DNA from: Bdellovibrionota bacterium
Lineage (GTDB): Bacteria > Bdellovibrionota > FAC87 > UBA2466
Assembly (NCBI GenBank): GCA_041736915.1
Contig: JBGSST010000241.1
Span: forward strand, 1-56,200
Length of the DNA stretch: 56,200 nucleotides
Direction: 5' to 3'
Part shown: in pieces, positions 27,509 to 34,891 of the stretch
Numbering within the stretch: the stretch's first letter is position 1
Layout: each line of letters opens with the position of its first letter
The notes under the pieces: model-generated
Seen by the model: the letters and a program-made list of their open reading frames with translations, nothing else
Told to the model about the DNA's origin: nothing
The model's database searches: none
Made by a program: the position numbers and the translations under genes

Positions 27509-28012
27509 TTACGCGGAGGGCGACCGGCTGAGTTCATTCATAGTGATCATGGCTTCTAAGATATCCTTAGCCTGGTTCATCAGCTCGCCAATTCTGGCTA
27601 ACCTAGCTTCATCTAGCTCGAGACCATTTTTCTGACCCGAAGAGATCGACTCAAAGCTGGCGATTGCCTGGGATAAGAGCTGGGTTTCACGAATCTTCAG
27701 AACCCCCGTGATCACTTGGTTTAAATCTTCATTCGCAATAAGTGGCAAATTGCGTTGATTGGTTTCGTTCTCGGGGAGAAGCACCTCATATTCGACTAGC
27801 TGTTTCATGGCCAAACTTACTGACGCCTTTGAAACCTCTAACAGCTTTGCCACTTCGCTGGCGGTAAGTGGCTGGCGAGAGATAAAGACTAGCGCCCAGA
27901 TCTCCCCCTGCAACCGCATGAAACCCCAGTATTCAATAAACTGGCCCACCGTCTTAATGAATCGTTTCACCGAATGGGACAGCTTGGGCGCCGGCGTTTT
28001 CTTCTTTCGCAT
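27509..28012 (-). CDS. GbsR/MarR-family transcriptional regulator
   Basis: GQFIEYWGF..LQGEIWALVF...LTASEVAKLLEVSKASVSLAMKQL winged-HTH pattern. Confidence 0.85.
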   Translation of the reverse strand: MRKKKTPAPKLSHSVKRFIKTVGQFIEYWGFMRLQGEIWALVFISRQPLTASEVAKLLEVSKASVSLAMKQLVEYEVLLPENETNQRNLPLIANEDLNQVITGVLKIRETQLLSQAIASFESISSGQKNGLELDEARLARIGELMNQAKDILEAMITMNELSRSPSA

Positions 28013-28111
28013 GTTCAGGACTTACTATCATGCGGGCCGCCTGAACAACGGATTCTTAACCACGTACGTGAGGCATTTGGTCATTCCCTTTCCACGCAAA
28101 CTAATATGTAG

Positions 28112-28129
28112 GTTTAACTCGACTTAAAC
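28112..28129. promoter_or_regulatory. Palindromic operator candidate GTTTAA-N6-TTAAAC (copy 1)
   Basis: GTTTAActcgacTTAAAC lies between the divergent regulator and fasciclin genes; the same motif recurs at 31477. Confidence 0.7.
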
Positions 28130-28178
28130 TTAAATTGATGGGAAAAATAGGGCTGTAAAACAACGAGGAGTTTCAAAT

Positions 28179-28688
28179 ATGAAAAGCCGAATAGCGCTTA
28201 TCTGCTTAATCATGTCCACCGCACTCTTTGCCGGGCAGGCGAAGCCAACCAAAGGAAAAGCAATGGCCGAGAAAGATATCGTTGAGACCGCCGTGGGTGC
28301 GGGAATGTTTTCAACGCTCGCAACGGCGTTAACGGAAGCCGAATTGATCACGACCCTTAAAGGAGCCGGACCATTCACCGTGTTCGCTCCGACGGATGAG
28401 GCTTTTAAGCGTCTACCCGAGGGTACGGTCGAGAAGCTGCTGAGAAACAAGACGGCGCTTAAGCGGGTCCTGCTGTCTCACGTGGTGAGCGGCAAGGTAA
28501 TGGCGGCCGACGTCGTTAAATTGTCGGAGGCTATTACCGTCGACGGTGCCAAAGTTGGAATCAAGGTAGACAAGGGCTCGGTGCTCTTGGCCGGTACGGC
28601 TAAGGTTACCAACGCGGACGTGAAGGCCTCGAACGGTGTGATCCATGTGATCGATCACGTCATTCTGCCGCATGATCTGAACCTGTAA
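28179..28688 (+). CDS. Fasciclin (FAS1) domain protein
   Basis: GPFTVFAPTDEAF and SNGVIHVIDHVILP motifs; signal peptide. Confidence 0.95.
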   Translation: MKSRIALICLIMSTALFAGQAKPTKGKAMAEKDIVETAVGAGMFSTLATALTEAELITTLKGAGPFTVFAPTDEAFKRLPEGTVEKLLRNKTALKRVLLSHVVSGKVMAADVVKLSEAITVDGAKVGIKVDKGSVLLAGTAKVTNADVKASNGVIHVIDHVILPHDLNL

Positions 28689-28829
28689 TTGTTTCCCTGG
28701 ACCCCTGGGAAAGGCCGGACGTTCGCCTGCAATGGTGACGCCCGGCATCTTCCATTTTATTACCTCTCGTGACAGGGGGCCCTCTTAATGGAACATTAGC
28801 CTTCTCGGCTACAAAGACAGAGGTAGGGC

Positions 28830-29669
28830 TTGTTGAAGTTCTCATTGATGAATCGCTGGTCTCGGTACTGTTTGATCGTTCTCTTCCTGGTGAACGCGAT
28901 CTCAATCTTTGGGTTCGCCGTATTTTCACTTAACCCCGAGTTACTGTCCCGCTGGCCGTGGGCCCAGACGATATTTCAGATGTCTTACAGTTTCTTTTCA
29001 CGGCTGCAGATCTCGCTCGCCACCCTAACTTTGGTCTTGGTCTTAACTGCCCACGTGCGGATGGAATGGGTACCCTCCTTTTTCGCCATTGTGTTGATAA
29101 GCCTGGTAAGCGAGCTGGGCGGTACGACTTACGGCATTCCGTTTGGAAAGTATGAGTACACGGTCCTGCTGGGGCCGATGATTCTCGATCGCGTCCCTTA
29201 CTTAATTCCGCTCAGTTGGTTCTTTATGTCCGTGGCGGCTTTCTCGATTGCCTTGGCGGTTTTCGGAGCCAGGGCTAGTAAGTGGTTAATTATCCAGGGG
29301 GCCTCGGTTCTTTTACTTACTTGGGATCTCACACTGGATCCGGCGATGAGTCATCTATCGCCGTTTTGGGTATGGGCCGAGGTGGGAGCTTACTACGGCA
29401 CTCCAGTAATGAATTTGTTCGGGTGGTTTGTCACCGGCCTGATGAACATGGCCGCCTTAGATTGGTTGGGGGCGCGGCAGTGGCTTTCGCGCATACCAGT
29501 CAATACGCTCCTACTCTTCTACTTCGCCAACCTATCGCTGCCCCTGGGAATCGTGCTTTGCGCGCAGGTTTGGCAACCAGCCCTGCTCAGTCTTACCGTC
29601 TACGGTGGCTTTTACGCCGTTTGGTTCCGCCGGGTTTCCGCTCATGGCTACGCCTCTAGCCCAGCGTGA
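28830..29669 (+). CDS. cruF: Carotenoid 1,2-hydratase CruF family (DUF422)
   Basis: ELGGTTYGIPFGKYEY, VPYLIPLSWF, WDLTLDPAM and YYGTPVMNLFGWF motifs. Confidence 0.88.
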   Translation: MLKFSLMNRWSRYCLIVLFLVNAISIFGFAVFSLNPELLSRWPWAQTIFQMSYSFFSRLQISLATLTLVLVLTAHVRMEWVPSFFAIVLISLVSELGGTTYGIPFGKYEYTVLLGPMILDRVPYLIPLSWFFMSVAAFSIALAVFGARASKWLIIQGASVLLLTWDLTLDPAMSHLSPFWVWAEVGAYYGTPVMNLFGWFVTGLMNMAALDWLGARQWLSRIPVNTLLLFYFANLSLPLGIVLCAQVWQPALLSLTVYGGFYAVWFRRVSAHGYASSPA

Positions 29670-30337
29670 CTAGGCTGGATGAAATACGCTTCAGCCCTCT
29701 AGTGTGGAATCTCTTTGATCTATATCTGGGCATCATCACGTCGTTTCGTTTTCATGAGGTGATCCTCTCGGGTGCGTTCGACGTTAGCAAACTACAAGGC
29801 CCCATTATCCTAATCTCGAATCACTCAACGTGGTGGGACGGCTTCTTTATGAGGCGGGTTCAGAAGAGGCTTTTTCCGGGCCGCCCACTCTACACGGTAA
29901 CGTTGGGGTCCGAACAGGATAAGCTGCCTTTCTTCTTCAGACGGCTTGGGGTCTTGCCCCTATTTCCCGGTCCCGGGGAGACGCTGGGGCTGCTTCGAAA
30001 TCTGGTGTCGCGATCGAAAGAGGCGCACGGAGAAATTGTCGTAAGCTTTTTTCCCCAGGGGAAAATCTACCCGTCTGCAAAGCGCCCTTTAAAGTTCAAA
30101 CGCGGGATCGAAGTGCTTGTTCGAGCTTTGGGAGCCACGGTAATCCCCATCGGGATTCACATCGAACCGCTGCAGCATAAAAAACCGACGGCCCTGATCG
30201 TAGTGGGCGTCCCTCTGACTGGCGCCTCGATCTCCCAGCTTGAGAGCGCGGTCGAGGGCGAGCTAGATAATTTGATGAGGCAGCTCGTGGCGCGTGGCGA
30301 AGACTTCCGGCCGGAATTGGCGGATCCGCCATGGTAA
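29666..30337 (+). CDS. PlsC-like acyltransferase (carotenoid-glycoside acyltransferase, CruD-like)
   Basis: NHSTWWDG (HX4D) and FFPQG motifs; sits between cruF and a GT2 gene. Confidence 0.8.
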   Translation: MTRLDEIRFSPLVWNLFDLYLGIITSFRFHEVILSGAFDVSKLQGPIILISNHSTWWDGFFMRRVQKRLFPGRPLYTVTLGSEQDKLPFFFRRLGVLPLFPGPGETLGLLRNLVSRSKEAHGEIVVSFFPQGKIYPSAKRPLKFKRGIEVLVRALGATVIPIGIHIEPLQHKKPTALIVVGVPLTGASISQLESAVEGELDNLMRQLVARGEDFRPELADPPW

Positions 30338-31422
30338 TTGTTTGGTCTTGCCTCGTGTGGCTCAACTTGGTCGCGCTCTATAATCTATTGACCGCCATAC
30401 GCCTGGAGGATTCGTCATGGTGCGTGGACGATCAGCCGAGCGATCCCCGCAAAAAAGTCAGCCTACTCATTCCGGTTCGCAACGAGGCAAGGAACCTGCC
30501 GCGGCTCATTCATTGCCTGTCGAGACTCGCCTATGCTCCTTTGGAGATCATTTTTTTAGACGATGAGTCTACGGACGACACCGCAAGAATTTTGGCCGAC
30601 TCCGGATTCCGCACTTTGTCGGGCGTTCCCGCGCCAGCGGGTTGGGTGGGCAAGAATTGGGCGTGCCATCAACTGGCCAAAGCGGCCACCGGTGAGCTGC
30701 TACTTTTTTGTGACGCCGACGTAGCGATGGCGGACCGCTCGGTGGCCGATACCGTGCGCAGGCTGCACGAGCATGGTGCGCGGGCCCTTACGGCATTGCC
30801 CCGTCAAAGCATGCGGAGTTGGTCCGATTTGGCAGTGATTCCCTTAGTGATGCATCAGCCGATAGCGGGATTACTGCCGCTTAACCTGCTGCACTATTTT
30901 CATTCGCGATCCCTACTGGTTTGTAATGGCCAATGGCTTTGTTTTGATCGAACGGCCTACTTTTCGATCGGTGGGCACGAGCGGGTGCGTGGCTCGTTTG
31001 TCGAAGACATGGCTCTGGGCCGTGAGTTGAAGAGAAACGGTTACAGGTTGTTAACGGTGGTGGCCGCGGACTCATTGACGGTCAGGATGTATGAAGACTG
31101 GGGCAATTTAAAGGAGGGCTTTACCAAAAACCTCTATCCATTAATGGGAGGAAACGCGGCTATTTTTTGCCTGTGCCTTTTTCTATTCGTGGTGGCGAAT
31201 GGTTTGAGCTTTCTCACCGCACCGGGTCTTCTTCTGCTGACGATGAATCGCCTTTTGGTGGCGCGATTATTTAGGGGTTCGGTGCTGAGCGTGGTGACCC
31301 ATCCGGTGGGAGTGATTTTGGTCTTCTATCTCTCCGTTCGATCCTTTTTCAAATGCCGATGGGGAACCCTAACGTGGAAGGGTCGCAAAACCCATTTAGC
31401 GACCTCCAGCAGTCAAGCTTAA
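30331..31422 (+). CDS. GT2 glycosyltransferase (carotenoid glycosyltransferase, CruC/CrtQ-like)
   Basis: PVRNEA, DDESTD, GWVGKNWACHQL, FCDAD, NGQ, VEDM, RMY and WKGR motifs. Confidence 0.85.
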   Translation: MVIVWSCLVWLNLVALYNLLTAIRLEDSSWCVDDQPSDPRKKVSLLIPVRNEARNLPRLIHCLSRLAYAPLEIIFLDDESTDDTARILADSGFRTLSGVPAPAGWVGKNWACHQLAKAATGELLLFCDADVAMADRSVADTVRRLHEHGARALTALPRQSMRSWSDLAVIPLVMHQPIAGLLPLNLLHYFHSRSLLVCNGQWLCFDRTAYFSIGGHERVRGSFVEDMALGRELKRNGYRLLTVVAADSLTVRMYEDWGNLKEGFTKNLYPLMGGNAAIFCLCLFLFVVANGLSFLTAPGLLLLTMNRLLVARLFRGSVLSVVTHPVGVILVFYLSVRSFFKCRWGTLTWKGRKTHLATSSSQA

Positions 31423-31476
31423 AGCAAATCGCCCGAACCTTCGTCACGTTGCCGGCAGAAATGGCGCTAGACTTTG

Positions 31477-31494
31477 GTTTAATACAGATTAAAC
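31477..31494. promoter_or_regulatory. Palindromic operator candidate GTTTAA-N6-TTAAAC (copy 2)
   Basis: GTTTAAtacagaTTAAAC in the AT-rich leader, 34 bp upstream of the rhodopsin ATG. Confidence 0.7.
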
Positions 31495-31528
31495 TTAATT
31501 TATTGATGCAATTAATTAAGGAGCCTCT

Positions 31529-32293
31529 ATGACCGCGCTGTCGAGTCTTCAATATTCATTAGTAACGAATATGTTTTCTTTCACGATTGCAGCTATGGGG
31601 GCTGCGTTCATATTCTTTTTGGTGTCTCGGTCGCAGGTATTGCCGAAGTATCGCGGGGCCCTGCTTATTTCGGGTCTAGTGGTCGCCATCGCCTGTTATC
31701 ACTACGTTCGCATTCTCGAAAGCTTCACTGGTGCATTCACCTTCACCGGGGGCCTTTATCAGCCTTCGGGAGTGCCGTTCAATGATGCTTATCGCTATGT
31801 TGACTGGCTTCTGACGGTGCCGCTTCTGCTATTGGAGTTGGCGGCCGTTGTCCAACTAGGCGCCCGTGCACCGGGACAAGGATTAACGGCCAAGTTAATG
31901 TTGGCTGCGGTCTTGATGATCTTGACTGGGTATCCCGGTGAAATTTCTTCGTCGATGACGAGCCGGGCCGTCTGGGGCGCGATCAGTACGGTGCCCTTCG
32001 TCTACATTCTCTACATTCTGTGGGTAAAGCTCGGGGAAGTTCTGCATAAGGAGAACACCGAAGTGCAGGTTCTAATAAGGAATACTCGCTGGCTCTTATT
32101 GGCCACTTGGGGATTCTACCCGATAACCTACCTTCTCCCGCAGTTAGGAGTCGACCCCAGCGCGTCCGTCGTCGGGGTGCAAGTGGGCTACGCCATTGCC
32201 GACGTGCTGGCTAAGGCCGGTTACGGCGTAATGATTTACGCCATTGCTAGCGCCAAGACCGAAGCTGAGGGAGGCCTTAAGGCCGTTGCCTGA
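31529..32293 (+). CDS. Microbial rhodopsin, xanthorhodopsin/Gloeobacter-rhodopsin type proton pump
   Basis: FNDAYRYVDWLLTVPLLLLE (D-T-E), helix B YHY, GYPGE, WGAISTVPF, WGFYPITY and DVLAKAGYG (retinal Lys); AAGGAG RBS. Confidence 0.95.
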   Translation: MTALSSLQYSLVTNMFSFTIAAMGAAFIFFLVSRSQVLPKYRGALLISGLVVAIACYHYVRILESFTGAFTFTGGLYQPSGVPFNDAYRYVDWLLTVPLLLLELAAVVQLGARAPGQGLTAKLMLAAVLMILTGYPGEISSSMTSRAVWGAISTVPFVYILYILWVKLGEVLHKENTEVQVLIRNTRWLLLATWGFYPITYLLPQLGVDPSASVVGVQVGYAIADVLAKAGYGVMIYAIASAKTEAEGGLKAVA

Positions 32294-32514
32294 TGAGATT
32301 GCAACTTTCTTCGCCACGTCGGTTCGTTCTTGGAGGAATTACGGGACTCGTTGCGGGTTCAGCTTTTGGTGGTGCCTTCGGGCTCATCGCTAGCTGCTTC
32401 CGCGGCGGTCCCAGTTTTCCTCAGGGATGTTTCGAGAGCGCTCCCTTTTTCGCCGCAGCCTTCGCCGTCGCGGGCGGAATACTCGCTCTAGAACGAGACG
32501 CGAGTAAGCCATAG
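32293..32514 (+). CDS. Small Gly-rich two-TM membrane protein
   Basis: Overlaps both neighbours (TGATG and TAGTG); GxxxG-rich hydrophobic segments. Confidence 0.6.
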   Translation: MRLQLSSPRRFVLGGITGLVAGSAFGGAFGLIASCFRGGPSFPQGCFESAPFFAAAFAVAGGILALERDASKP

Positions 32515-33425
32515 TGCCCTCGCTAAGTCTCATTCTCGCCGCACTTCTTTGTATCGTTTCGATTGCCGGCGCGCGGGAAGGGCTGACGATAGCGCCGATG
32601 ATTGGGGGCATTTGGCTGACCTTCGGTGTAGGCCACGGACTCTTTGACGCCGTGCTAGCCGCACGTTCGTGGAACGTATCGTTTCGCGTTGCATTCGGTC
32701 TCTACGCCGCATTTAGCCTTGTGGCGGGCCTCGTGGCCTTTGTCTTTCCTTACCTTGCGCTTGTTCTGCACGCGGCTGTGTCGGCCTTTCACTTCGGGCA
32801 AGCAGAGTGGGGAGAGCCACGGCGAGAAAGGAAACTGGAGCGAGGCGTGATCCTAGTTTGGGGGCTGGCTTTGATCGTGGTTATGATTATGGGACCATGG
32901 ACCGAGTCACGCCAAGTGATCGACGTCCTTCTGCAGGGGGATACTGTTGGATTACTTCCTCTGCTGGGCCAAATAAGAGGTGCTCTGCTCGTGGGTTTCG
33001 GCGCCTTGGGATTTCTGGCGTCGATTTGGCTGGGTAGAAGGATGCCCGCGTCGGACAATCGTTGCACCCAGCGAGCCTTCGAAACCCTTTTGCTATACGC
33101 GCTATTTCTTACGTTACCGCTTTGGCTTTCGTTCGTGCTGTACTTGTCTCTTTGGCACGGACTTCGATCGCTCGAGGAAGACATTTCGCCCGAGATTCGG
33201 CGCGCTTGGCAGAACCGCTCAGGGCGCCCCGCCCTTATCGTGGCCGTAGTCGCTGCTTCTTTAACCACCGCCTTGATTGTGTACTTTGGTCGGCAGATTA
33301 CGCCAGCGACAATTCGTGATCATGCGTTTGCCGGCGCGACCGCATTCGCTTTTCTCATCGCCGTGACATTTCCCCATGCGGTAGTGATGGCGGGAGTGAC
33401 TAGAAGAAGAAGCTACGCTGCATAG
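32514..33425 (+). CDS. blh: Beta-carotene 15,15'-dioxygenase Brp/Blh
   Basis: Four conserved His motifs (GVGHGLFD, HFGQ, WHGLRS, TFPH); multi-TM; adjacent to the rhodopsin gene. Confidence 0.9.
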   Translation: MPSLSLILAALLCIVSIAGAREGLTIAPMIGGIWLTFGVGHGLFDAVLAARSWNVSFRVAFGLYAAFSLVAGLVAFVFPYLALVLHAAVSAFHFGQAEWGEPRRERKLERGVILVWGLALIVVMIMGPWTESRQVIDVLLQGDTVGLLPLLGQIRGALLVGFGALGFLASIWLGRRMPASDNRCTQRAFETLLLYALFLTLPLWLSFVLYLSLWHGLRSLEEDISPEIRRAWQNRSGRPALIVAVVAASLTTALIVYFGRQITPATIRDHAFAGATAFAFLIAVTFPHAVVMAGVTRRRSYAA

Positions 33426-33649: not shown

Positions 33650-34891
33650 ATGGGCTTTTCACACATGACATTTCGTTACGCGCTCGTTCTGGCTCTTTTT
33701 TCTCTGCCGGCGTTTGCGGAGACGGGAAAGCCCAAAACGGGTACCGCTACGGGACCCAACGGCGAGCCCATCAACTACATTATCTTGAACCAGGAACAGG
33801 TTCAGTGTGCGGTGAGTTTATCGGGGCTAGGAAATGGCTTCATGTACGGCGCCGATCTGAAAGGTAAGAAAGAAGAAGTTCTGGCGGAGAACGGCCTGCC
33901 CTTAAAGACTCAGCTGCCCTTTTATTTCCATTGGCAGTGCACCAGCCCCGGCTGCAGTGAATTGGCCTCGTTCTTTCCCGATGCGCTGACCGGTCGCGTG
34001 CAATGCAAGAATTGCGGTACCTCGCCAAACGAACACACGAAAATTTTACAGCTGCATCACAAGGGAAAGCTCATCCTGCACGAGGGCGACCTAGCCCAAA
34101 CCAAAGAGCAGGCGGAAGATGTTTTTGCCGGTTCGAAGTGGCTTTGCGGCTCCGAGGGCTGCGGAATCCTGAACCACTCCGTGCCCGAACACGCCACTTG
34201 TGCGGGCTGTGGCAGCAGCGGAAAAGACGGAAAGAAAATCACGCTGAAATCGGCGAAGCACGAGATCGATCCGTCGCTTTTGAACCCGACCGAAGTCGTT
34301 CCGCCGGAGCCCGTCGCGCGCCGCCGAGAAGAACTTTCGGTAACCAACAACCACACCAAGGACACGTCGAAGGGTTACTCTCCGAAGGAGCCCGAGGGAA
34401 AGCTCGAACGCTTTAAAGAGAAGGCCAAAGACTGGTTAAGAAGCCATCCCCGCGAGACCGCCGGCGGGGGCGCCGTACTTACTGCCATGTTTGGGGCCGC
34501 GCTTACGGCGTGGTTACTCGCCACGGACGAAGTAGAAGGCATCGTCGAATCGGGCGAGTGGGAACACGCCTACGATATCGAAACTTTCACGCTCGTCTCC
34601 GATAGAGATTGGGAGTCCAATCTAACGCCATCTTCTCCGGTGATGCCGAGAAACGGTGCAGGGGGCGTGGGCGGAGTGATGAACATTCGTGATTGCCGGC
34701 CCGCCATTCATCACTACGACAGTGTTTTCTCCCACTACGAGACCGAAACTTATGAAGTCCCCGATGATCCGTCGCCCTCTAGCGATTGGAGTGGCGGAGG
34801 CGGCGGAGGTGGCTTCGGTGGTGGCGGAGGCGGCGGCGGTGGAGGAGGCGGCGGCGCATCCGACTACGGTAACGGGGGAGGTTCCTTATGA
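33650..34891 (+). CDS. Zinc-ribbon membrane protein with Gly-rich tail
   Basis: WQC..GC, CKNCG, WLC..GC and CAGCG motifs; one internal TM segment; poly-Gly near the C-terminus. Confidence 0.7.
   Translation: MGFSHMTFRYALVLALFSLPAFAETGKPKTGTATGPNGEPINYIILNQEQVQCAVSLSGLGNGFMYGADLKGKKEEVLAENGLPLKTQLPFYFHWQCTSPGCSELASFFPDALTGRVQCKNCGTSPNEHTKILQLHHKGKLILHEGDLAQTKEQAEDVFAGSKWLCGSEGCGILNHSVPEHATCAGCGSSGKDGKKITLKSAKHEIDPSLLNPTEVVPPEPVARRREELSVTNNHTKDTSKGYSPKEPEGKLERFKEKAKDWLRSHPRETAGGGAVLTAMFGAALTAWLLATDEVEGIVESGEWEHAYDIETFTLVSDRDWESNLTPSSPVMPRNGAGGVGGVMNIRDCRPAIHHYDSVFSHYETETYEVPDDPSPSSDWSGGGGGGGFGGGGGGGGGGGGGASDYGNGGGSL

Follow-up and report, generated by a model that had tools for sequence, protein, structure and literature searches.

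A xanthorhodopsin-blh operon of a Bdellovibrionota genome that took in putative carotenoid acyl-glycoside tailoring genes and a conserved mini-protein

A 56,200-nucleotide stretch of DNA from a Bdellovibrionota bacterium (GenBank assembly GCA_041736915.1, contig JBGSST010000241.1, positions 1 to 56,200; hereafter the window) carries, between positions 27,509 and 33,425, a xanthorhodopsin (XR) gene together with genes for retinal formation and putative carotenoid tailoring. The locus is read here as an XR-blh operon that took in an acyl-glycoside tailoring operon and a conserved mini-protein. The interpretation favored, if by a modest balance of probability, is that of a light-energy operon of two coupled blocks. 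In this scheme, XR would pump protons outward with a 73-amino acid (aa) two-helix membrane protein docked on its helices A-C, while Blh would cleave beta-carotene to retinal. A CruF-type enzyme would hydrate the open psi-end of a monocyclic carotenoid, a family 2 glycosyltransferase (GT2) would glycosylate the new 1'-hydroxyl, and an acyltransferase (AT) would acylate the sugar, yielding a carotenoid acyl-glycoside whose C40 backbone would come from an unlinked crtY-crtE-crtI::crtB operon. The acyl-glycoside would be made for the pump and would most likely be bound at the Gly150 fenestration as a second chromophore. An earlier note on this DNA, made from its letters alone, had claimed fasciclin, cruF, AT, GT2, opsin, a small open reading frame (ORF) and blh on one strand with a divergent regulator gene. 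This gene content and these strands were confirmed, as were the coordinates of all 8 of the 8 ORFs, with families assigned by Pfam and NCBIfam profiles with curated cut-offs:

27509-28012, minus strand: winged-helix regulator candidate (MarR/GbsR-like), divergent; MarR_2 26.2 bits, CudC 29 bits
28179-28688, plus strand: fasciclin (FAS1), secreted, single-domain; PF02469, E = 7e-37
28830-29669, plus strand: CruF-type carotenoid 1',2'-hydratase homologue; PF04240 Caroten_synth, E = 7.7e-46
29666-30337, plus strand: PlsC/lysophospholipid-type AT; PF01553, E = 6.6e-10
30331-31422, plus strand: GT2 glycosyltransferase; PF00535, E = 5.8e-18
31529-32293, plus strand: XR opsin; PF01036, E = 6e-39
32293-32514, plus strand: 73-aa two-helix ORF; no Pfam or NCBIfam family
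32514-33425, plus strand: Blh beta-carotene 15,15'-dioxygenase; PF15461, E = 7.9e-30; TIGR03753 109 bits

The junctions show two translationally coupled blocks, cruF-AT-GT2 and XR-73-aa-blh, that lie 106 bp apart (GT2 to XR). The genes overlap by 4 nt at cruF/AT and by 7 nt at AT/GT2, and by 1 nt at both XR/small ORF (TGATG) and small ORF/blh (TAGTG); fasciclin and cruF are separated by 141 bp. A scan for consensus promoters and terminators returned no more sites than were returned in shuffled sequence.

Linkage of the cruF-AT-GT2 trio to XR was examined in the 80 nearest XR loci, one genome per species, with the trio counted when it lay within 5 kb of XR. In what follows, G000 denotes the source genome (476 contigs, 94.9% complete), other G numbers denote related genomes, L numbers denote loci, and C numbers denote contigs of G000. 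A total of 8 of the 80 loci (L022, L025, L026, L027, L030, L036, L044, and L048) carried the trio, and iterated HMMs recovered the same 8 loci, all of which also carry blh. Seven of the 8 bear the titles of Bdellovibrionota taxa and 1 is titled 'bacterium'; the other 72 loci, from Chloroflexota, Cyanobacteriota, Deinococcota, Myxococcota, and others, had no trio by these criteria. The earlier note had set trio-opsin linkage in related genomes beforehand as the test that could refute it, and the linkage was found in these 8 loci, in several orders and alongside co-occurrence in the host family. At least three arrangements were observed:

L022, L025, L027, L030, and L044: XR facing blh-crtY'-GT2-AT-cruF
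L036 and L048: XR facing blh-GT2-AT-cruF
L026: cruF-AT-GT2-XR, with blh and fasciclin convergent
Window and G002: fas-cruF-AT-GT2-XR(-small-blh)

Genes for backbone synthesis, crtE-crtI-crtB, are also nearby in 4 of the 8 trio loci (L022, L025, L027, and L030), and crtB only is present at L044, which is an 8.6-kb contig. A quick tree groups the eight trio-linked XRs in a single clade (support 94), which is nested in a starred set of 18 rows; the window XR is a member of that set too. The Kin4B8-type XRs of the same family fall elsewhere in this tree and the family therefore holds two XR lineages.

The association of the trio with XR extends to genomes in which the genes are not linked. In a phylum sample of 401 genomes, an XR-type opsin was found in 19 and CruF in 27, and 11 genomes encoded both (chance expectation, ~1.3). 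The XR and CruF genes of these 11 genomes were on the same contig within ~3.5 kb in 6 and on separate contigs in 5. Moreover, in a sample of 34 genomes of the host family, crtB was present in 26, XR in 9, cruF in 8, and GT2 in 8, with 7 of the cruF genomes and 7 of the GT2 genomes also encoding XR; the lone genome with cruF and GT2 but without XR is G199 (77% complete). The split between presence and absence of XR, cruF, and GT2 is repeated within three genera (g1, g11, and g12). Thus, in the host family, cruF and GT2 track XR and not crtB, an observation that appears to be new, as does the linkage of the trio to a single Bdellovibrionota XR clade in at least three gene orders. Additionally, in the Kin4B8-type genus, the trio forms an operon on a contig other than that of XR. 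In the literature retrieved on xanthorhodopsin and cruF there was nothing on Bdellovibrionota, it being noted that the fosmid map of Kin4B8 could already show the trio, and literature on xanthorhodopsin with glycosyltransferase, acyltransferase, and carotenoid concerned an actinobacterium only.

The opsin, which is the sole rhodopsin of the genome, has the residues expected of its class. Its translation gives H58, D92, T96, E103, W149-G150, D225, and K229, of which K229 and D225 are invariant in the 34-row opsin alignment from which conservation was read, and the D92-T96-E103 motif and helix-B H58 align with the corresponding residues of XR. Among structures in the PDB, the strongest matches were Kin4B8 (4.4e-82), psXR (2.3e-80), the Salinibacter ruber XR 3DDL (3.4e-80), and the Gloeobacter rhodopsin (GR) 6NWD (3.8e-80), as compared with ~1e-30 for chloride and sodium pumps and 6e-30 or weaker for the next classes. 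These matches and residues identify the opsin as a predicted proton pump of the xanthorhodopsin family, nearer to XR, GR, and Kin4B8 than to proteorhodopsins (PR), sodium-pumping rhodopsins (NaR), or chloride-pumping rhodopsins (ClR). With respect to the fenestration, G150 aligns with XR G156 and Kin4B8 G153, these positions being hand-counted from the printed chain numbers in the PDB alignments, and conservation at this site reaches at least 90% across the 34 rows. The XR-type assignment made in the earlier note, with its D-T-E motif, helix-B His, and Gly at the XR G156 site, is borne out by these results, and the PDB search likewise places the opsin in the XR clade. The floor of the putative carotenoid pocket differs among these proteins: it is Ser208-Tyr209 in Kin4B8 and Met-Ala in XR (PMC12308411), and the window opsin has Gln205-Leu206 at the positions of Kin4B8 Ser208-Tyr209 and XR Met211-Ala212. 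In cruF-linked XRs of other genomes the pair is Met-Phe or Met-Met, which, together with the Gln-Leu found here, suggests that the pocket resembles the keto-binding XR/GR type more than it does Kin4B8. As a side observation, the Kin4B8-type XRs of G009 (L019:8985-9740) and G022 (L020:5526-6284) have Ala at the fenestration site (MWAVLS), and Kin4B8 itself has Gly.

The products of the three tailoring genes were compared with characterized and clustered homologues. The best NCBIfam model for the cruF product was the CruF equivalog NF045693, at 133.5 bits against a cut-off of 400, which places the protein at the family level only. The GT2 scored 79 bits on the CruG equivalog NF045692 (cut-off 600) and 98 bits on HpnB, far under its cut-off. 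With the GT2 of a carotenoid cluster on a Thermus brockianus megaplasmid it shares 41% identity (E = 2e-50), and when the GT2 of that cluster was searched in G000, the best match was the window GT2. In the same Thermus cluster, the gene ahead of this GT2 encodes an acyltransferase with which the window AT shares 28% identity (E = 4e-8). The AT may have a CruD-like role and the GT2 a CruC/CruG-like role; what CruF/CrtC, CruC, and CruD each do in the formation of salinixanthin-type pigments has been described (PMC5822342). With a CruF-type hydratase ahead of the AT-GT2 pair, the trio would be expected to convert a monocyclic carotenoid to its 1'-O-glycoside fatty-acid ester, in line with that scheme (PMC5822342). 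A search of the genome for a separate CrtD was negative, and for this reason the predicted product is not given the 3',4' double bond that salinixanthin has; the encoded CrtI scored 332.8 bits on the bifunctional CrtID model (cut-off 640). Of the salinixanthin pathway, the 3',4'-desaturase CrtD and the 4-ketolase CrtO were thus not recognized in this genome, a CrtO-like gene having been rejected on its distribution (see below).

The supply of retinal and of the carotenoid backbone could be traced in the same genome. Blh exceeds the cut-off of TIGR03753 (109 versus 95.25 bits), and in the host family blh is present in 7 of 34 genomes, adjoining XR in all 7. The suggestion in the earlier note that retinal is supplied at the locus agrees with the presence of blh in the operon, and Blh together with genomic genes for beta-carotene synthesis would provide it. 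The note had also observed that crtB, crtI, and crtY are absent from the window, and none of the three had a match on the entire contig of the window. They are instead found elsewhere, as had been considered possible: CrtY (TIGR01789, 376.6 bits; cut-off 215) is encoded at the end of contig C290 with the N-terminal half of a polyprenyl synthase (crtE); C200 is filled by the C-terminal half of the same synthase and crtI (TIGR02734, 672 bits; cut-off 238); and crtB begins at the end of C127. CrtB scored 286.7 bits on its NCBIfam equivalog (cut-off 480) but 252 bits on Pfam SQS_PSY (cut-off 26). In the relative G022, crtY-crtE-crtI-crtB followed by a gene for a 198-aa membrane protein lie on one contig, and crtI::crtB is a single 834-aa open frame (L133:4494-6998). 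The backbone is thus encoded in G000, probably by a crtY-crtE-crtI::crtB operon, and is unlinked to the window. Since the backbone genes are in the genome but reside on three other contigs, the description of the locus as 'self-contained' in the earlier note was not correct. Open frames of ~810-850 aa span crtB in most relatives, and crtI (C200:2-1498) and crtB (C127:10233-11132) of G000 run off their contig ends, consistent with the same fusion. Further, a gene on C127 (P0062; 9640-10233, minus strand) overlaps the stop of crtB and encodes a His-rich membrane protein of 198 aa to which no Pfam family could be assigned. Among the 34 family genomes, the 26 with crtB, and no others, have a homologue, which always adjoins crtB. 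P0062 is a candidate carotenoid-modifying enzyme; searches of a protein atlas with P0062 and with the 73-aa protein returned only clusters without names.

Of all parts of the locus, the 73-aa ORF, to which the earlier note had given no weight, proved the most surprising. The protein has two hydrophobic segments, and twelve positions (G22, F25, G26, F29, G30, A33, F36, G39, P40, G45, S49, and F53) are invariant in nine rows of its family. A homologue was found in 15 of 83 XR loci. In 10 of these (L021, L041, L045, L049, L053, L065, L077, L088, L094, and L099), which belong to a Deltaproteobacteria-titled metagenome-assembled genome (MAG; Myxococcota), Ignavibacteriota, Bacteroidota, Rhodothermota, Sericytochromatia/Tanganyikabacteria, and Chloroflexota, the small gene is directly behind XR and the flanks contain no blh; in the other 5, all Bdellovibrionota, the small gene adjoins crtB. 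Roseiflexus-type holders of XR have been described as being without a known carotenoid oxygenase (PMC5459899). Because it occupies the usual site of blh in ten loci that show no blh, the small protein may bear on the assembly or loading of the pump. A profile search of 1.84 billion proteins yielded 61 representatives of the small family, all of 42-144 aa and none (0) fused. When metagenome contigs were scanned reciprocally, with the small protein as the query, XR was immediately upstream on the same strand at 8 of 8 loci, 3 of which are near-copies of one locus already in the XR set. In the phylum sample, the small protein was detected in 3 of 401 genomes by a first-look filter that scored part of the candidates only.

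Modeling of the complex between XR and the small protein supports the latter as a candidate partner of the pump. The model scored 0.74 over three runs (0.71-0.79), and the best control scored 0.01; at least 84% of contacts were common to the runs and the pLDDT of the partner was at least 78. Of 80 solved complexes, 58 attain the mark applied to such models, as do 2 of 110 mismatched pairs; these counts hold only roughly here, own alignments having been used. The modeled contacts on XR comprise residues 27-35, 46-61, 85-95, 135, and 139, which by our reading would place the interface on the side formed by helices A-C and not near the carotenoid site at helices E/F. Among solved structures, no comparable rhodopsin complex is known to us. 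In the parts of the literature on xanthorhodopsin-blh operons with hypothetical proteins that were available, no small partner of XR is named, and the fosmid map of Kin4B8 could already show the small ORF. A broader proposal, which is advanced tentatively and is more doubtful than the interpretation given at the outset, is that the 73-aa protein is a subunit of XR complexes in at least six phyla, docking on helices A-C, and that the native second chromophore of the pump in Bdellovibrionota is a self-made, non-keto acyl-glycoside from the cruF-AT-GT2 operon. If true, the 73-aa protein would be, to the best of the authors' knowledge, the first small protein that serves a proton-pumping rhodopsin as its dedicated partner.

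Comparison with known systems helps to delimit what is particular to the locus. The Thermus megaplasmid cluster, which is of the type that yields thermozeaxanthin-like glycoside esters, likewise has an overlapping acyltransferase-then-GT2 pair; unlike the window, it has no cruF and no opsin, and a P450 is present (within the 18.8 kb examined). In the Thermus pigment, the sugar is attached to a ring hydroxyl of zeaxanthin. The XR of S. ruber (3DDL), which binds salinixanthin, shares with the window opsin the DTE motif, the helix-B His, and the Gly at XR position 156 and matches it at the E-value given above. It differs in the residues of the pocket floor, and salinixanthin has a 4-keto ring, for which no credible ketolase was found in this genome; crtO presumably adjoins the opsin gene in S. 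ruber. The antenna of the S. ruber pump is a monocyclic carotenoid acyl-glycoside, the class that would be expected of cruF, GT2, and AT (PMC5822342). In rhodopsin-blh(-crt) operons of marine and freshwater bacteria, the opsin is similarly located beside blh and carotenoid genes are optional (PMC13043013, PMC7701988). The window locus differs from these in having genes for tailoring rather than for the backbone and in the conserved mini-protein encoded between opsin and blh.

The closest characterized relative is Kin4B8 (7YTB/8I2Z), a proton pump with the fenestration glycine, which is the best PDB match and comes from an uncultured Bdellovibrionota bacterium (bioRxiv 10.1101/2022.08.24.505090; PMC12621250). 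The XR of G009, from a genus in the host family, matches Kin4B8 at 504 bits, which puts both in the same family. In contrast to these likenesses, the window opsin belongs to a separate XR lineage in another part of the tree (55-57% identity), Kin4B8 holds 3-hydroxy xanthophylls by Ser208-Tyr209 (PMC12308411), and the Kin4B8 genus has cruF-AT-GT2 on another contig and no small ORF behind XR. The earlier note had correctly supposed a Bdellovibrionota-like host, the phylum being Bdellovibrionota; RpoB did not help to place the genome, its identity to five named MAGs being 62-66% in every case, a Polyangiales MAG included. The note had further remarked that this would be light harvesting in a mostly predatory lineage. 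That is not new, as Kin4B8, a near-identical XR of which occurs in the same family, was already reported. Given Kin4B8 and a list of rhodopsin-bearing MAGs that includes two MAGs of the locus set (PMC7701988), rhodopsin phototrophy in Bdellovibrionota is already in print. Antenna rhodopsins are now considered widespread, and the freshwater Bdellovibrionota pumps have been tested with pigments from lake extracts or other organisms; the host's own pigment is not addressed in the available portions of that literature. Three candidate genes for the host pigment emerge from the window locus, from the eight loci with a rearranged counterpart, and from the copy that is unlinked to XR in the Kin4B8 genus, and the question could therefore be reduced to a simple co-expression experiment. 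If the acyl-glycoside is indeed self-made, there would be implications for the pigment native to the genus that hosts Kin4B8, where the same operon occurs. If the antenna pigment and the small partner both fail, what remains is an ordinary XR-blh operon beside pigment genes.

A number of results weigh against a self-made acyl-glycoside bound by the pump, beginning with the chemistry of the pigment. The earlier reading of the trio as makers of acyl-glycosides stands insofar as homologues of a 1',2'-hydratase, a GT, and an AT are encoded; CruF, GT2, and AT all score under equivalog cut-offs, and their roles are putative. The lack of a separate CrtD in the genome, mentioned above, belongs among these results. 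Moreover, a search of the genome for crtEBIY and crtO/W/Z, which the note had proposed, located the former, and no credible ring ketolase or hydroxylase was recognized in the genome. CrtZ, CrtW, and CrtR models had no match among the 5 of 6 FA_hydroxylase and 5 of 6 FA_desaturase hits that were scanned, the scan leaving out a 553-aa FA_hydroxylase ORF (C169) and a sub-cut-off FA_desaturase hit (C137). Three P450s that were considered as CYP175-type hydroxylases are only 25-38% identical, over partial length, to the P450 of the Thermus cluster and were rejected. Also rejected was a CrtO-like gene on C111 as the missing ketolase, which scores 314 bits (cut-off 1000) and adjoins biotin-type genes. 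It occurs in 23 of 34 family genomes, 5 of them without crtB, and in 0 of 6 genomes of genus g11, where crtB is present in 6 of 6 and XR in 2 of 6; because its distribution does not track crtB, it is not carotenoid-specific. A 265-aa desaturase-like candidate on C345 has three His boxes, is present in 2 of 34 family genomes, and is missing from G002, the congener that shares the module. The searches of this genome thus revealed no supply of 4-keto or 3-hydroxy rings by the cell, with P0062, beside crtB, retained as the one candidate for ring modification. Of the pigments offered to Kin4B8, beta-carotene, with its unsubstituted rings, was not bound (PMC12308411), and salinixanthin was bound without energy transfer (PMC12308411; PMC13093654). 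Separately, it was observed that two Gemmatimonadota MAGs (L072 and L096) have a CrtO-like gene (32% identity to that of C111) ~3 kb downstream of XR, beside XR and blh, and that their XRs are in the same starred tree set as the window XR.

The distribution of the genes also contains exceptions. CruF is missing from 8 of the 19 XR genomes in the phylum sample, including all 5 of family f10; G009 has a Kin4B8-like XR and neither CruF nor GT2; and G189 and G162 have no AT or GT2 beside cruF. It should be noted that the co-occurrence counts overstate the case, since related genomes are not independent, and that the XR tree was obtained by a quick search and was midpoint-drawn only. Rhodopsin is, furthermore, absent from 14 of the 27 CruF genomes of the phylum sample. 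This last result would be accounted for if the acyl-glycoside were a general photoprotective or membrane-stabilizing pigment that is co-induced with the pump and not bound by XR, the pump using retinal alone. Such an explanation, possible if rather unlikely in our estimation, is in keeping with the failure to recognize a ring ketolase or hydroxylase and with the rejection of unsubstituted rings by Kin4B8. Pigments of this kind are also made by Rhodothermus marinus, which is reported to be without rhodopsin (PMC5822342), and the Thermus AT-GT2 carotenoid cluster has no opsin in its 18.8 kb. Against a general pigment stand the host family, where crtB is present in 26 of 34 genomes and yet cruF and GT2 occur almost exclusively together with XR (7 of 8 genomes each), the adjacency to XR that is maintained across at least three rearrangements, and the retained fenestration glycine.

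The antenna could alternatively come from outside the cell, as hydroxylated xanthophylls of algae, cyanobacteria, or prey, with the fasciclin as a periplasmic carotenoid carrier and the trio serving another purpose. Kin4B8 binds lutein and zeaxanthin from a lake extract (bioRxiv 10.1101/2022.08.24.505090), and the AstaP carotenoid-binding proteins are fasciclins that match the window protein, whose N-terminus resembles a signal peptide when read from the translation, at 1e-11. In genus g7, which is of the Kin4B8 type, 5 of 5 genomes have a fasciclin homologue, and so do those members of g1 that carry XR. The window fasciclin is nonetheless far closer to generic FAS1 domains, its best PDB matches (1w7d, 6.6e-34), than to AstaP; a homologue is near XR in only 2 of 80 loci (L026 and L035), and homologues also occur in G016 and G199, in neither of which was XR found. 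Further, Gln205-Leu206 replaces the Ser208-Tyr209 by which Kin4B8 binds hydroxyl groups (PMC12308411). An AstaP-like carrier function, for which the likeness is at the level of the domain and the linkage to XR is weak, was set aside as an assignment, and an external antenna is retained as a minor and improbable explanation. Finally, chance alone could have placed the tailoring genes beside the pump, in a variable part of the genome, without any functional link between the two. With a GC content of 0.546, the module (28179-33425) lies in the 4th percentile of 5.2-kb windows, the genome mean being 0.580 (sd 0.018). Of the flanking genes, that for the upstream 569-aa protein had no match in any of three congeners (0 of 3), and that for the downstream 596-aa protein had only a weak match in one of them (1 of 3), which fits a mobile or variable region; flank synteny in these three congeners allowed no clean insertion site to be drawn. 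Against an accident stand the same adjacency in a congener, adjacency in eight distant loci with other gene orders, and co-occurrence of the genes even when they are unlinked, which together make this explanation very improbable. The production of an acyl-glycoside for the pump remains the interpretation preferred here, at the strength stated at the outset. Established at this locus are the identities of the genes, the opsin residues, and the linkage and co-occurrence with XR; the enzyme substrates, the role of the pigment as an antenna, and the docking of the small protein are inferred.

The remaining genes of the region provide leads of lesser weight. The identification of the divergent gene as GbsR/MarR in the earlier note is upheld in part: there is a weak winged-helix match, but the scores fall below threshold for both models (MarR_2, 26.2 bits with a cut-off of 27; the GbsR-type CudC, 29 bits with a cut-off of 218), and for this reason the label 'MarR/GbsR-like' is a lead only. 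A homologue of the regulator (30% identity) is located immediately 5' of XR-blh on the same strand in G189 (L118:4844-5374), and another (24% identity) is 3.7 kb from XR in G022 (L020:9520-10017). Downstream of blh, the window encodes a 413-aa ORF (33650-34891, plus strand) with Cys-rich repeats, a long C-terminal glycine run, and no Pfam family. Two more paralogues of the fasciclin are encoded elsewhere in G000, at C385:22013-22408 (52% identity) and at C465:7813-8349 (47% identity), the latter with an in-frame TGA.

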